Positions 37,728-59,099 of a stretch of DNA of 64,000 bases are shown here, piece after piece. This DNA is from a virus (lineage: Duplodnaviria > Caudoviricetes), in the IMG/VR virus record IMGVR_UViG_3300021399_000012, positions 1-64,000 of that record; one strand, written 5' to 3'. The notes beneath the pieces were generated by a model. That model did no database searches, was not told the origin of the DNA, and saw only the letters and a program-made list of their open reading frames with translations. The translations under genes were made by a program, and so were the position numbers. Within the stretch, counting starts at the first letter, position 1; each line of letters opens with the position of its first letter.

Positions 37728-37756
37728 AAAAAATCAAAATACGGGGGTAAATAGAA

Positions 37757-39496
37757 ATGGCGTTGTCCAATACAGCGGTTCCCGTTTACTATGGACAATT
37801 TAGAGATCAAGTCTTACGTGGTGAAATACCCGTAAACGAGTTCATAGCCATGGAAATGAACCGTATCGATAGTCTAATAGCCAATCCAGGAATTTATTAC
37901 GATGATAAAGCTATGGATGGTTTTGTAGAGTTCTGTGAATGCGAGTTAACACTTACGGATGGTGCAGACCTAAAGCTATTAGACTCATTTAAATTATGGG
38001 CCGAACAAATATTCGGCTGGTATTACTTTCAAGAACGTAGTGTCCCAGTACCAGATGAAAATGGTATAACACATTACGTTAAGAAAACTATCAAGAAACG
38101 TTTAGTTAATAAACAGTATTTGATAGTTGCCAGAGGTGCTGCCAAATCAATGTATGGTTCTTGTATACAGAACTATTTCTTGAATGTTGACACATCAACT
38201 ACACATCAGATAGCAACTGCTCCAACTATGAAGCAGGCCGATGAAGTTATGTCACCTATAAGAACTGCCATAACAAGAGCTAGAGGTCCTTTGTTTAAAT
38301 TCTTAACAGAAGGATCTTTACAAAACACCACTGGTTCTAAAGCCAATAGAGTTAAACTGGCATCTACGAAAAAGGGTATAGAAAATTTCCTGACTGGTTC
38401 TCTATTGGAAGTTAGACCAATGAGCATAAATAAGCTTCAAGGTTTAAGACCAAAGATTTGTACAATCGATGAGTGGCTATCAGGAGATATACGAGAGGAT
38501 GTAATCGGTGCATTAGAGCAAGGTGCCTCTAAGATAGATGACTATTTAATAGTTGCTATATCTTCAGAAGGTACAGTTCGAAATGGAGCTGGAGACACAA
38601 TCAAAATGGAGCTCTTAGATATTCTTAAGGGCGAGTATGTGAATCCTCACGTATCTATATGGTACTATAGACTTGATAAAGTGGAAGAAGTTGCCGATCC
38701 TAATATGTGGATAAAAGCAAACCCAAATATAGGTCTGACTGTTTCTTATGAAACATATCAATTGGACGTAGAAAGAGCCGAGAAAGCTCCAGCTGCTAGA
38801 AATGATATTTTAGCAAAGAGATTCGGAATTCCTATGGAAGGTTACACATATTTCTTCTCATATGAAGAGACTATACCTCATAGAAAACAGAATTTCTGTG
38901 GTATGCCATGCGCTTTGGGTGGCGATATGTCACAGGGCGATGACTTCTGTGCATTTACATTCTTATTCCCATTACGTGATGGATTCGGAGTGAAGACTCG
39001 AAGTTATATTTCATCATTAACATTACATCGATTACCAGGAGCTATGCGAGCAAAGTATGACGAGTTCATAGAAGAAGGAAGCTTGATAGTATTGGAAGGC
39101 AATATTCTTGATATGATGGAAGTTTACGACGATCTCGATAAACACATAATCGATCAAGAGTATGACGTTCGATGCTTTGGCTATGATCCATATAATGCTA
39201 AAGAATTTGTAGCTAGATGGGAACTCGAGAATGGACCTTTCGGTATAGAGAAAGTAATACAAGGAGCGAGAACAGAAACAGTTCCACTCGGAGAACTTAA
39301 GAAATTATCAGAAGAAAGAGCACTATTATTCGACGAAGAGCTTATGTGCTTTACAATGGGTAATTGTATAACACTAGAGGATACAAATGGTAATAGAAAG
39401 TTGTTAAAGAAGAGATATGAAGCTAAAATCGATAATGTAGCAGCTATGATGGATGCGTTTGTAGCTTATAAGTTGAATAAAGATGCATTCGAGTAA
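37757..39496 (+). CDS. terL: terminase large subunit
   Basis: VARGAAKS Walker A, TIDEW Walker B, C-terminal nuclease with KIDNVAAMMDA. Confidence 0.9.
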   Translation: MALSNTAVPVYYGQFRDQVLRGEIPVNEFIAMEMNRIDSLIANPGIYYDDKAMDGFVEFCECELTLTDGADLKLLDSFKLWAEQIFGWYYFQERSVPVPDENGITHYVKKTIKKRLVNKQYLIVARGAAKSMYGSCIQNYFLNVDTSTTHQIATAPTMKQADEVMSPIRTAITRARGPLFKFLTEGSLQNTTGSKANRVKLASTKKGIENFLTGSLLEVRPMSINKLQGLRPKICTIDEWLSGDIREDVIGALEQGASKIDDYLIVAISSEGTVRNGAGDTIKMELLDILKGEYVNPHVSIWYYRLDKVEEVADPNMWIKANPNIGLTVSYETYQLDVERAEKAPAARNDILAKRFGIPMEGYTYFFSYEETIPHRKQNFCGMPCALGGDMSQGDDFCAFTFLFPLRDGFGVKTRSYISSLTLHRLPGAMRAKYDEFIEEGSLIVLEGNILDMMEVYDDLDKHIIDQEYDVRCFGYDPYNAKEFVARWELENGPFGIEKVIQGARTETVPLGELKKLSEERALLFDEELMCFTMGNCITLEDTNGNRKLLKKRYEAKIDNVAAMMDAFVAYKLNKDAFE

Positions 39497-39508
39497 AAGG
39501 AAAGAATT

Positions 39509-40318
39509 ATGGAAAGAGCAGAGTTTTATTCAGCACTATATGATTCTAATAATTATTTAGAGCATCATGGTGTTGATGGACAGAAATGGGGTAAACGTAA
39601 TGGACCTCCATATCCATTGAATTCCGAGGGTAAAGCAAGTCTGAAGAAACAGAGAAAAGCTGAGAAATTAAATACCGAGAATAAATTAGCATATGAACAA
39701 TATAAATATGCTGGAAGAGCGAATACTGCATATAATGTTAAAGTGGCAGGTCGTGTAGCAGCTCCTGTTGGAGGTATAATTGGAGCTGGTATAGGTAGCA
39801 CGGTAGGACCTGAAGGCACTGTATTAGGCACAATAGCCGGACTTGCAATAGCTGATCTTGGTGCGTCAGCAACCTCTGGTATTATTAATCTCGGTATGAA
39901 TGCAGTAAGAAATAGCAAGTATAAAAAAGCTCTCATAGAGTCGCAGAAACGTGCAGAAGATGATTTGGATAGACTTATGATATCGAAAAAATACAAACCA
40001 AATCTCGATAGCGGTGGTGATTTTATGACAAAGACAATTAATGGTGTTGAGATTGATGTCGATTATACATACGACGCAGATCGTAACCGTATCGCAAAAA
40101 ATGTCCAAAAATTAGAACCTAAGGTTGGATATATAAATGATCAGTTCACAAAGGAGTTGAAAGATAATGGCTATGGTGCACTTGTGAATAATAAAAGACA
40201 TATGTATATATCAGATACAGTTTGCGAGATAGGTACCTATCACGACGGCCATGACTATTCAACATATATAAACGAAGAAAATGGTAAAATTGAAAAAGGC
40301 ATTATGATGAATGGTTAA
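39509..40318 (+). CDS. head-region accessory protein with LEHHG..GQKWG leader and glycine-rich hydrophobic segment
   Basis: MERAEFYSALYDSNNYLEHHGVDGQKWG; glycine-zipper-like GGIIGAGIG segment. Confidence 0.7.
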   Translation: MERAEFYSALYDSNNYLEHHGVDGQKWGKRNGPPYPLNSEGKASLKKQRKAEKLNTENKLAYEQYKYAGRANTAYNVKVAGRVAAPVGGIIGAGIGSTVGPEGTVLGTIAGLAIADLGASATSGIINLGMNAVRNSKYKKALIESQKRAEDDLDRLMISKKYKPNLDSGGDFMTKTINGVEIDVDYTYDADRNRIAKNVQKLEPKVGYINDQFTKELKDNGYGALVNNKRHMYISDTVCEIGTYHDGHDYSTYINEENGKIEKGIMMNG

Positions 40319-57978: not shown

Positions 57979-57982
57979 AATT

Positions 57983-59071
57983 ATGAGCGTGGATTGGCTG
58001 GCGTCAATGACGCATACTTACGAATTCTATATAGTAGATCCTGTCACATGGGGCGATAAGATGCGAATTGACACAGTCACTGCATGCTCTATAAGATACG
58101 ACGACTCTGTAGAAACTCTGGCAACTGCATCATTTACACTAACCGAAGAGATCGGAGAAGTGTATGTAAGAGTATATATGGTTGTCATTCAAAATGGGGT
58201 AAAAATGAGAATTCCATTAGGTACATTTCTAGCCACATCACCGAATGTTTCATTTGATGGTAAGGTGAAAAGTGTATCTATAGAATCATATTCCCCACTA
58301 CTTGAATTAAAAGAGAAGTATACTCCTATTGGATATACGGCTCCAAAGAATCAAGAAATATTACCGCTCTTAGCGACACTATGCGAAGAAAATATGCGTA
58401 GTCCGGTTTTAAAACCATCATTTAAGAGTGATAAATTTCAAGATGATTTTATAGCAGGCGGTGATGAGACGTGGCTTAGTTTTATAACAGCTGCGTTAAA
58501 AGCCGCTAACTATAAATTTGAATTTGACGAAAACTTTAGGGTAATGTTCGCTCCTGTTCAGGACGTAAGATCATTACAACCTAAATGGATATATAACGAT
58601 GATAATAGTTCAATCTTGCAACCGCAAATAACTATTTCTAGAGATCTATATGGAATACCAAATGTGGTAGAAGTTGTGTATTCGAGATCTGGAAATGCCA
58701 ATTCTGTTATGCGTTCGGTCGTTAAAAATGATGACCCTTCGAACCCGCTATCTGTTCAAGCTAGAGGCAGAGAAATAGTATACAGAGAAACATCACCGAA
58801 CATAATCGGTATACCTACTCAAGAGTATCTGGATGATTATGCCGAGAAGTTACTTAGAAAGAAATCGTCTTTGGAATGTTCTTTAAGTTATACTCACGGC
58901 TATTGTCCAGTTAGAGTTGGTGATGCGGTGTTGTTGAACTACAATAGACTTGGCTTGTTGAATGTAAAAGCCAAAGTAACATCACAAACATTGACTTGTG
59001 ATTCTGGTGCACAGGTAAGTGAGACCGCAGTCTTCACAACTGAACTCTGGAATCCATTTACTTCAAAATAG
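57983..59071 (+). CDS. minor tail / baseplate hub-like protein
   Basis: Position; YDDSVETLATASF, PNVVEVVYS, CPVRVGD patterns. Confidence 0.6.
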   Translation: MSVDWLASMTHTYEFYIVDPVTWGDKMRIDTVTACSIRYDDSVETLATASFTLTEEIGEVYVRVYMVVIQNGVKMRIPLGTFLATSPNVSFDGKVKSVSIESYSPLLELKEKYTPIGYTAPKNQEILPLLATLCEENMRSPVLKPSFKSDKFQDDFIAGGDETWLSFITAALKAANYKFEFDENFRVMFAPVQDVRSLQPKWIYNDDNSSILQPQITISRDLYGIPNVVEVVYSRSGNANSVMRSVVKNDDPSNPLSVQARGREIVYRETSPNIIGIPTQEYLDDYAEKLLRKKSSLECSLSYTHGYCPVRVGDAVLLNYNRLGLLNVKAKVTSQTLTCDSGAQVSETAVFTTELWNPFTSK

Positions 59072-59099
59072 GGTAAAGATATTAAGAAAGGGATAACTA

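Follow-up and report, generated by a model that had tools for sequence, protein, structure and literature searches.

The late genes of this gut phage share a short, strictly oriented word, TCAAAATRNGG, which raises the question of what the word does there and which factor reads it. The window, by which we mean the whole 64,000-nt stretch analysed, comprises bases 1-64000 of the source record, which is 72,052 bp long and has terminal repeats. We found 10 exact copies on the + strand of the window and 0 on the - strand, against a chance expectation of 0.39 per window and a largest value of 2 in shuffled sequences. Two more exact copies lie past the window end (genome 65227 and 67741), so that the whole genome has 12 on the forward strand and none on the reverse; all of them fall within the virion/lysis block (37.7-67.8 kb). 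An exact-match scan of the first 37 kb found no copy, and the shorter TCAAAATR occurs 17 times on the + strand of the 33-kb late block versus 0 times in the 39-kb early block. An earlier sequence-only reading of this DNA had counted nine exact copies and one near match, all on the + strand; the strand was right and the count was short, as the copy at 53180 had been overlooked. Its estimates of fewer than one copy by chance and none in the first 37 kb agree with our values, and the equal frequency in early regions or on the minus strand that it had named as evidence against the idea is not seen in the both-strand count that it had suggested. The copies in the window, with two sites of the type found in related phages, are as follows.

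37734..37744, + strand: TCAAAATACGG, 7 nt past the stop codon of the upstream gene; TerL ATG 23 nt on
38601..38609, + strand: family-type TCAAAATGG, within TerL, codons ATC AAA ATG
40354..40364, + strand: TCAAAATAAGG; connector gene ATG 24 nt downstream, Shine-Dalgarno AAGGAG
42154..42164, + strand: TCAAAATAAGG; portal ATG 23 nt downstream
43507..43517, + strand: family-type TCAAAATGGGA, whose ATG starts the protease-major capsid fusion gene
45440..45450, + strand: TCAAAATAGGG, between the capsid gene and the DUF7253 head-tail gene
46822..46832, + strand: TCAAAATGGGG, past the major tail protein gene; tail assembly chaperone (46891) 69 nt on
48039..48049, + strand: TCAAAATAGGG, in coding sequence; gene at 48212 173 nt downstream
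53180..53190, + strand: TCAAAATAGGG, deep in the tape measure gene
55293..55303, + strand: TCAAAATAAGG, close to the end of the tape measure gene; gene at 55471 178 nt downstream
58189..58199, + strand: TCAAAATGGGG, within the tail protein gene 57983-59071
59063..59073, + strand: TCAAAATAGGG, over the stop codon of the tail protein gene; radical SAM ATG 37 nt downstream

The exact copies are concentrated at gene boundaries. Eight of the 12 lie no more than 70 nt upstream of a gene start, in zones that make up 6.3% of the block (p = 1e-7), and non-coding DNA, which is 3.3% of the late block, holds six; four copies lie deep inside genes. The distances to the next start, in copy order, are 23, 24, 23, 60, 69, 173, 2291, 178, 911, 37, 37, and 60 nt, with the 45440 copy standing 45-60 nt before DUF7253 by choice of ATG (45485 or 45500). 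The gene assignments made previously (TerL, adaptor/connector, portal, stopper/DUF7253, tail chaperone, and radical SAM) stand, as do the near match over the capsid ATG (43507, with the protease-capsid ATG at 43512), the two copies inside coding sequence about 170-180 bp before the next gene (48039 and 55293), and the copy inside the baseplate gene (58189, within our tail protein gene). The motif logo reads (A/C)T-TCAAAAT-R-N-GG (~20 bits), and no conserved flank was found beyond it. We detected no second oriented non-coding motif in the late block, where sigma-70-like sites are not in excess (64 versus 69 expected). An apparent late-block motif, GCTAATTATATT, was rejected as a coding repeat of the tail fibre.

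A word with the core TCAAAATG is common to hundreds of related phages of two bacterial phyla (Actinobacteria and Firmicutes). Across three sets of relatives (~3 Mb), this core occurs ~435-440 times on the coding strand versus 0-4 times on the opposite strand per ~1.1-Mb set, including 442 (+) versus 4 (-) in 80 IMG/VR loci and 435 (+) versus 0 (-) in 80 independent metagenome loci. Among 22 complete relatives, every genome has 4-19 copies versus at most 1 on the opposite strand, clustered downstream of the polymerase gene. Phages 1706, Mudcat, Rima, Duffington, and ReqiPoco6, which have been cultured, carry 4-9 versus 0-1, all in the structural arm. The word in relatives always lies within the late block, downstream of the gene for the phrog_4291 two-barrel RNA polymerase. 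Its copies use all three reading frames, and in the relatives with 55-62% GC (actinophages) it is kept at the capsid start in 14 of 16 loci and inside TerL, with AAA, in 10 of 13, where AAA makes up only 12% of Lys codons. Retention against codon bias and in three frames thus indicates selection at the nucleotide level.

Four positions serve as anchors in the family, namely the capsid start (80%), the gene after the capsid (75%), a site inside TerL (78%), and a site inside phrog_4338 (81%). Three are present here: 43507, a placement found in 122 of 152 unique contexts in relatives; 45440, whose orthologous post-capsid boundary has the word in 113 of 150 contexts; and 38601, which has one mismatch to TCAAAATRNGG and whose orthologous codon has the word in 146 of 187 related loci. 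The phrog_4338-internal anchor has been lost, with 47466 reading TCTAAATGG. The FP_oengus copy at 39806, sought after a minus-strand gene, reads TCAAAATGT. Searches with the 339-aa protein, with the polymerase, and, in metagenomes, with the 835-aa tail protein returned nothing close, and the best metagenome match to the portal had 68% identity. The sole close relative found, a 4.8-kb contig (L094) with 97% identity, is too alike to inform site-by-site conservation; its homology starts 4 nt upstream of the 42154 copy.

Compared with the family word TCAAAATG(G), the motif of this phage has the same core, TCAAAAT, and the same restriction to the coding strand of the virion and lysis block that follows the polymerase gene. 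However, position 8 is A instead of G in nine of the 12 exact copies, and the invariant GG occupies positions 10-11 rather than 8-9. Most copies here lie upstream of the ribosome site, whereas relatives usually carry the word over the start codon, an overlap seen in this phage only at 43507. Since G8G9 of the TCAAAATGG type is confined to 46822, 58189, 38601, and 43507, and 1.12 Mb of relatives show no enrichment of TCAAAATA (12 versus 8), we classed the motif as a variant. Judged by its letters, it is a private variant of the family-wide word, and as such a natural specificity change that is open to exploitation.

The polymerase gene and a second class of signal bear on which factor reads the motif.

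32325..35525, + strand: single-chain two-barrel RNA polymerase, 1066 aa (phrog_4291), candidate reader, with the catalytic motif GADFDGD
71..30994 and genome 69796-72052, + strand: early promoter class TTCG(C/T)A-N15-TATAT(G/A), ~20 co-oriented copies

The polymerase scores 990 bits to phrog_4291 and has a C-terminal helix-turn-helix like sigma region 4. Its family is encoded by 24 of 24 relatives at least 90% complete, among which no polymerase-less phage was available as a control. The early class has no credible copy in the late block. The Shine-Dalgarno sequence can directly abut the signal in both classes (TATATA-GGAGGTGA at six early copies; TCAAAATA-AGGAG at 40354), and both classes end in A-T-R followed by purines. 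No sigma-like gene was found here or is annotated in Duffington or FP_oengus, and the small conserved genes next to the polymerase gave no informative Pfam or PHROG matches for sigma, adaptor, or RNase.

We give about even chances to the explanation that the motif serves as a late promoter for a factor encoded by the phage, in the simplest case its own polymerase. The recognised element would be a compact promoter of ~9-13 bp, (A/C)T-TCAAAAT with a purine/G run, and RNA would start within or just 3' of AAAAT-R. The reader would most simply be the single-chain two-barrel enzyme at 32325-35525, and the early and replication genes would use the other, bipartite signal TTCGCA-N15-TATATR, so that two signal classes would split the genome into early and late programmes. 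Late units would start at TerL, the connector, the portal, the post-capsid gene, the tail chaperone, radical SAM, the endolysin, and one further gene, and the copies internal to TerL, the tape measure gene, and the tail protein gene would boost downstream genes. The offset from the ribosome site is variable yet the place at the gene boundary is constant, which fits a signal for the transcript 5' end, and non-consensus bases that are invariant across phyla argue for a phage-encoded reader. The predicted hairpins after the capsid and tail-tube genes coincide exactly with motif copies, a modelled arrangement that fits a terminator-then-restart layout. At 45440, AAAAUA forms the loop of a predicted 17-pair hairpin (45425-45464) followed by a U-rich tail (-22.4 kcal/mol, z -4.0), and at 46822 the G run forms the 5' arm of a predicted GC hairpin.

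The sequence-only reading had likewise proposed a late promoter of the phage RNA polymerase, possibly initiating at the purine run, or else an RNA processing or antitermination site. An oriented late-block signal at gene 5' boundaries, conserved in the family together with the polymerase, is borne out, whereas the phage enzyme as reader is only the most economical interpretation. Initiation at the purine run is consistent with the three copies (TerL, connector, and portal) that provide the Shine-Dalgarno sequence directly abutting the motif, the G run at 37734 doubling as that of TerL. Nothing supports an antitermination site. Against the promoter reading stands the small size of the element, which lacks any recognition element further upstream; in relatives, too, the word usually lies over the start codon behind a retained Shine-Dalgarno sequence, where initiation at the G after ATG would not express the gene. 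A broader proposal, which we hold tentatively and consider possible rather than probable, is that one virion-borne two-barrel polymerase runs the whole programme through two unrelated promoter classes, a long bipartite early one and a 9-11-bp initiator-type late one (TCAAAATGG) conserved from Lactococcus to Streptomyces phages, often on the start codon so that late messages (e.g., that of the capsid) would begin at or next to AUG. If so, late specificity can drift (ATA-N-GG for ATGG), and this would provide a natural pair for mapping the region of the enzyme that reads the start.

A late promoter of this kind would recall several known systems. In T7, each promoter covers ~19-23 bp, with conservation from -17 to +6, and serves a single-subunit polymerase of Pol I-like type. 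Similar to T7 class III promoters, the motif has many co-oriented copies before and inside late genes and an A/T-rich block followed by a putative initiating G run, with a terminator hairpin behind the capsid gene; however, with 11-13 conserved bp and a two-barrel enzyme, it is not a T7-type promoter. Nor is it an N4-type hairpin promoter (5-7 bp stem and 3-nt loop at every copy), as only some copies are structured, with predicted loops of 6-15 nt. In P23-45, the two-barrel polymerase promoters comprise an AT-rich motif for gp96 and a GC-rich one for gp64 (PMC10770324), late promoters have been described for the AR9 non-virion polymerase (PMC5449584), and the YonO promoter is still undefined (PMC5467207). 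On the promoter reading, the P23-45 and AR9 motifs would share with ours a short, phage-private sequence at start sites, sigma-free reading, and motif classes that match temporal classes. They differ in that their sequences are unrelated, their polymerases belong to other two-barrel families, and their positions were established by experiment (5'-end sequencing, ChIP, or in vitro transcription).

Among the alternatives, we regard as unlikely, though worth weighing, a signal acting in the late polycistronic RNA, either an endoribonuclease cleavage site or the site of an RNA-binding protein, which would excise or stabilise cistrons such as that of the capsid. The motif occurs only in the sense strand. 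Folding predictions leave its A run unpaired in all copies; at 45440, 55293, and 67741 it falls in a hairpin loop, and at 46822 in a bulge next to a stem. The two family positions ranked as best conserved bracket the capsid gene, which excision of the capsid message by RNA cleavage would also fit, and the TerL-internal copy could reduce TerL message relative to downstream genes. However, structural context differs between copies, the remainder having no predicted structure and the whole set no common fold; 36000-64000 gave 0 Rfam matches at the gathering threshold; linear specificity for 9 nt is unusual among RNases; and no conserved ribonuclease candidate was identified.

A rather improbable alternative is a late promoter for the host RNA polymerase, steered there by an adaptor or small sigma-like protein of the phage, with CAAAAT as a -10-like hexamer, the G run as discriminator, and an RNA start ~7 nt downstream, comparable to T4 late and P23-45 middle/late promoters. 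CAAAAT has both key -10 positions (A2 and T6) and is followed by GG(G/A), and this resemblance to a -10 hexamer with a G-rich discriminator counts against the phage-polymerase reading. T4 late promoters, TATAAATA, are used by gp55/gp33 with the host core polymerase. Like them, the motif has an 8-bp A/T-rich element, no -35 partner, and late specificity, and TCAAAATA agrees with the T4 element at 6 of 8 positions; no gp55-like protein was found, and the abutting Shine-Dalgarno sequence misfits a start 6-7 nt downstream. N4, a virion-polymerase phage, has its late genes read by the host polymerase. In 1706 and ReqiPoco6, the homologue of the polymerase carries the annotation 'structural' (virion) protein, and known virion-polymerase phages pass late genes to the host enzyme, as in P23-45 (PMC10770324); both points weigh against reading by the phage polymerase. 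The motif does not form a sigma-70 promoter (-35 TTGACA and -10 TATAAT, 16-18 bp apart), since there is no conserved upstream element and CAAAAT matches 4 of 6 positions. Against this alternative, the identical non-consensus 9-mer occurs in Actinobacteria and Firmicutes phages, although host-read promoters normally follow the host consensus; the Shine-Dalgarno sequence begins at motif position 8-9 in ~30 unique contexts, among them the TerL, connector, and portal copies of this phage, and would fall upstream of such a start; and the failure to find a sigma-like gene, noted above, tells against the idea too.

A translation-initiation context or operator of late genes, in the manner of the cluster K SAS or the T4 RegA operators, is a poor candidate. 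In relatives, the word is placed either as SD-TCAAA-ATG or as TCAAAAT-R followed directly by the Shine-Dalgarno sequence, 17-26 nt before ATG. TCAAA stands directly before ATG in 104 of 928 Shine-Dalgarno-led starts (the next commonest 5-mer in 16), and 193 of 703 unique contexts use the ATG of the motif to start translation; these counts, and the Shine-Dalgarno sequences supplied by the three copies here, favour the idea. Leaderless-only starts were rejected as a requirement, because capsid starts carrying the word in relatives retain a Shine-Dalgarno sequence; leaderless translation is possible. The mycobacteriophage SAS lies at a fixed 3-8 bp from start codons. The likeness is that of a conserved short word by the start codons of a gene subset that overlaps the ribosome-binding site, but the motif here is not an SAS, as it also lies deep in genes and at variable distance (23-2291 nt). 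Variable geometry to the ATG, a third of the exact copies deep in genes, a single start-codon overlap in this phage, and TerL- and phrog_4338-internal family anchors with no ribosome site and in differing frames all speak against a translational role. Finally, a polar DNA signal unrelated to expression (Chi-like, a nick site as in T5 and tf-like phages, packaging, or replication) would account for the strict orientation and the copies inside genes, but is very improbable given confinement to the late block rather than the whole genome, strong enrichment at gene starts with an exact start-codon register in relatives, and a word invariant across two phyla where Chi words vary by host.

In the literature, we found no description of the family word (full-text matches to it were primers only), no paper on transcription of the phrog_4291 phage family, and no 5'-end data for any member. 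The polymerase is named in work on YonO and P23-45, in a supercluster preprint, and by Ruprich-Robert & Thuriaux 2010, none of which gives a promoter for this family. The transcriptome of Rhodococcus phage WC1 was set aside, since that phage belongs to an unrelated cluster.

Annotations usually label the phrog_4291 enzyme as 'helix-turn-helix DNA-binding protein' or 'RNA-dependent RNA polymerase'. Its gene is the hallmark of a very large supercluster that includes phages of dairy Lactococcus and gut Faecalibacterium and hundreds of SEA-PHAGES actinophages. If the promoter reading is true, the motif would give the single-chain two-barrel polymerases, which have been little studied, a new type of promoter, and it would improve gene-start and operon annotation in this family. 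Overall, the pairing of a late signal that does not vary between two phyla with a separate early signal offers a concrete and cheap hypothesis for cultured phages such as 1706, Mudcat, Rima, and Duffington.

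The 64-kb window holds 10 exact matches to the motif TCAAAATRNGG, spread over 37734-59073 and every one on the + strand, and dinucleotide shuffles of the window give an expectation of 0.39 copies with a maximum of 2, in line with the sequence-only reading, which had put the chance number below one. That reading had listed nine exact copies and one near match; ten are present, the copy at 53180 having been overlooked, and the near match over the capsid ATG was confirmed as TCAAAATGGGA at 43507, whose ATG is the start codon of the protease-capsid gene. The whole virus record measures 72,052 bp and has terminal repeats, the window being its first 64,000 bases; additional exact copies past the window, at genome positions 65227 and 67741, bring the total to 12 forward and 0 reverse, so the proposed + strand exclusivity extends genome-wide. 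The 12 aligned copies yield the logo (A/C)T-TCAAAAT-R-N-GG (~20 bits), with A at position 8 in 9 of the 12 and an invariant GG at positions 10-11, and no further conserved bases were found within 40 nt on either side. Copies with one mismatch are scarce, which gives the motif class a sharp boundary. The core TCAAAAT has 19 + strand copies in the late block of virion and lysis genes (33 kb; 5.4 expected) but one in the remaining, early block (39 kb; 5-7 expected), where the next base is T; on the - strand it is close to the expected number in both blocks. Equal frequency in early regions or on the minus strand, named beforehand as evidence against a late signal, was thus not observed.

The motif copies were placed on the gene map, in which the whole gene set is on the + strand.

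Gene map of the phage
6341-10375, + strand, primase-DNA polymerase
32325-35525, + strand, two-barrel RNA polymerase
start 37757, + strand, TerL
start 40378, + strand, connector
start 42177, + strand, portal
start 43512, + strand, protease-capsid fusion
start 45500, + strand, DUF7253 head-tail gene
start 46138, + strand, major tail protein
start 46891, + strand, tail assembly chaperone
start 48586, + strand, tape measure
55471-64041, + strand, tail proteins, radical SAM enzyme and fibre
starts 65006 and 65264, + strand, holin and endolysin

For eight of the 12 copies a gene start follows within 70 nt, and zones of this kind cover 6.3% of the late block (binomial p = 1e-7); non-coding DNA, 3.3% of the block, contains 6 of the 12. 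Four copies are deep within genes (48039, 53180, 55293, and 58189). A design in which the motif precedes the ribosome site is used at TerL, connector, and portal: the motif begins 23-24 nt upstream of the ATG and its G run serves as the Shine-Dalgarno sequence (SD). At three intergenic copies, the A run is predicted to be unpaired between helices, forming the 6-nt loop of a 17-pair post-capsid hairpin (45425-45464; -22.4 kcal/mol, z -4.0), a 5-nt bulge beneath a GC stem of 10 pairs that follows the tail-tube gene (46814-46867), and the 8-nt loop of a 9-pair hairpin before the gene at 67801 (genome 67734-67760), with a second 9-pair hairpin after it. A perfect AGGAGG 3' of the capsid stop (45424-45429) was rejected as a ribosome site: it lacks a suitably spaced start codon and forms the outer portion of the post-capsid hairpin's 5' arm.

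The RNA polymerase matches phrog_4291 at 990 bits, with a catalytic GADFDGD of the cellular beta-prime type and a C-terminal sigma-4-like helix-turn-helix, and its sequence assigns the phage to the 1706 / FP_oengus / actinophage supercluster. By comparison with these relatives, the motif is a variant member of a family-wide word, TCAAAATG(G), with TCAAAATAGGG and TCAAAATGG as two word variants. Among 80 IMG/VR loci collected via the major tail protein (1.05 Mb), TCAAAATG occurs 442 times on the coding strand and 4 times on the other, and TCAAAATGG 370 times and once; 80 independent metagenome loci collected via the portal (1.12 Mb) gave 435 : 0 and 369 : 0, respectively. This is the strongest strand bias among family 8-mers. 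Each of 22 complete relatives has 4-19 coding-strand copies and at most one on the opposite strand, clustered in the structural/lysis block downstream of the polymerase gene. Among cultured relatives, Lactococcus phage 1706, Arthrobacter phage Mudcat, Streptomyces phage Rima, Gordonia phage Duffington, and Rhodococcus phage ReqiPoco6 carry 4-9 copies vs 0-1, all within the structural arm. Sites of the word are 7198, 9036, 11418, 12767, 15486, 18762, and 21231 in 1706, and 8368, 11333, 15660, and 19458 in Duffington. Faecalibacterium phage FP_oengus carries 14 vs 1, but five of them fall within the leftmost 6 kb and not in the structural block.

The distribution of the late word in relatives indicates that selection on it acts at the nucleotide level. 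All three reading frames are occupied, and relatives of 55-62% GC retain the word (39 copies vs 0 in 208 kb): 14 of 16 loci have it at the capsid start and 10 of 13 within TerL as ATC AAA ATG, although AAA makes up only 12% of Lys codons in these genomes, and it persists, as TCA AAA TGG, within the gene that follows the tail tube.

Anchor sites of the late word in relatives
capsid start, word in 122/152 unique contexts
start of the gene after capsid, word in 113/150 unique contexts
TerL-internal, word in 146/187 related loci
phrog_4338-internal, word in 135/167 related loci

Two designs recur: SD-N5-TCAAA-ATG, in which translation starts at the motif ATG (193 of 703 unique contexts), and TCAAAAT-R followed directly by the SD, 17-26 nt before the ATG. 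Of 928 SD-led starts in relatives, 104 have TCAAA immediately in front. TCAAAATA shows no enrichment in relatives (12 vs 8 in the 1.12 Mb of metagenome loci), so this variant is confined to the phage and to L094, a 97%-identical fragment that is its sole close relative and too similar to inform on conservation site by site. Family-type copies are retained at the capsid start (43507) and in the TerL interior (38601), and the phrog_4338-internal anchor is gone: 47466-47476 reads TCTAAATGG, with TCT AAA TGG vs the family TCA AAA TGG, a synonymous change. The 4.8-kb L094 is 97.2% identical from window position 42150 to the contig end and has no similarity upstream (breakpoint L094:167); this homology starts 4 nt before the copy at 42154, and the motif therefore also marks a mosaic junction.

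The early block has a separate co-oriented signal, TTCG(C/T)A-N15-TATAT(G/A), with ~20 copies from 69796 via the terminal repeat to 30994. The late block contains no credible copies of it, no surplus of sigma-70-like sites (64 vs 69 expected), no Rfam matches (36000-64000), and no second oriented non-coding word. An apparent second late motif from k-mer counts was rejected, as it proved to be coding sequence of the tail fibre gene that repeats every 60 nt (61055-61598; core GCTAATTATATTGATGC, Ala-Asn-Tyr-Ile-Asp-Ala). The octamer ATTATATT is confined to the + strand across the genome (from window position 76 to 61598 and further), with 79 copies there and none on the - strand, where an order-2 Markov model predicts 9.3 and 6.2, respectively; 18, 21, and 18 copies fall in the three reading frames and 22 in non-coding DNA. 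Of the 79, 59 lie within the early block, and the octamer doubles as the spacer in the early class of promoter, TTCGC-ATTATATT-CAGG. In positions 1-50000 of FP_oengus (NC_047916.1, L174), an analogous + strand word, TGATATTT, has 33 copies, often between the SD and ATG of early genes and dense within the DNA polymerase gene. Thus the early-region word varies among relatives, while the late word TCAAAATG is invariant.

Together, the data require an oriented, nucleotide-selected signal tied to late gene boundaries. With middling confidence, we take this signal to be a promoter read by the phage polymerase. Such a promoter would be compact, with RNA starting inside or adjoining the motif and a transcript 5' end at or just 3' of AAAAT-R. 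This position is favoured because the SD can start at motif position 8-9, because the early class shares the ending A-T-R followed by purines and likewise directly abuts GGAGGTGA (six copies), and because the motif sits at the loop or foot of the strong post-capsid and post-tail-tube hairpins; upstream transcripts would meet the full hairpin, and transcripts born at the motif would not. Phage two-barrel polymerases are known to use short private motifs at start sites in P23-45 (PMC10770324) and AR9 (PMC5449584).

An RNA cleavage or binding site is a possible but unlikely alternative, with which both the bracketing of the capsid gene by the word and its restriction to the sense strand are compatible. 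Late genes are passed to the host enzyme in N4, a virion-polymerase phage. The same holds for P23-45 (PMC10770324), polymerase homologues are annotated 'structural protein', i.e. virion-associated, in 1706 (orf75, L176) and ReqiPoco6 (gp106, L180), and CAAAAT-GG resembles a -10 hexamer plus a G-rich discriminator; a late promoter read by the host polymerase working with a phage adaptor must therefore be taken seriously as an alternative, if a somewhat more doubtful one. A purely translation-start context is improbable, failing in this phage, which has a single copy over a start codon, and a Chi-like, nick, or packaging signal, ill-suited to the late-block confinement and start-codon register, is the least credible of all.

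By their defining tests, the motif is not a T7-type, sigma-70-type, or N4-hairpin promoter, nor an SAS element, and the literature search gave no published description of the late word or of a promoter used by this polymerase family. The late promoter element of T4 is TATAAATA. The motif behaves like a phage-private late promoter, comparable to this element, to T7 class III promoters, and to the P23-45 and AR9 motifs. Its reader must be conserved in phages of both Actinobacteria and Firmicutes, and among transcription-related proteins only the polymerase, present in 24 of 24 near-complete relatives, is known to occur throughout the family.
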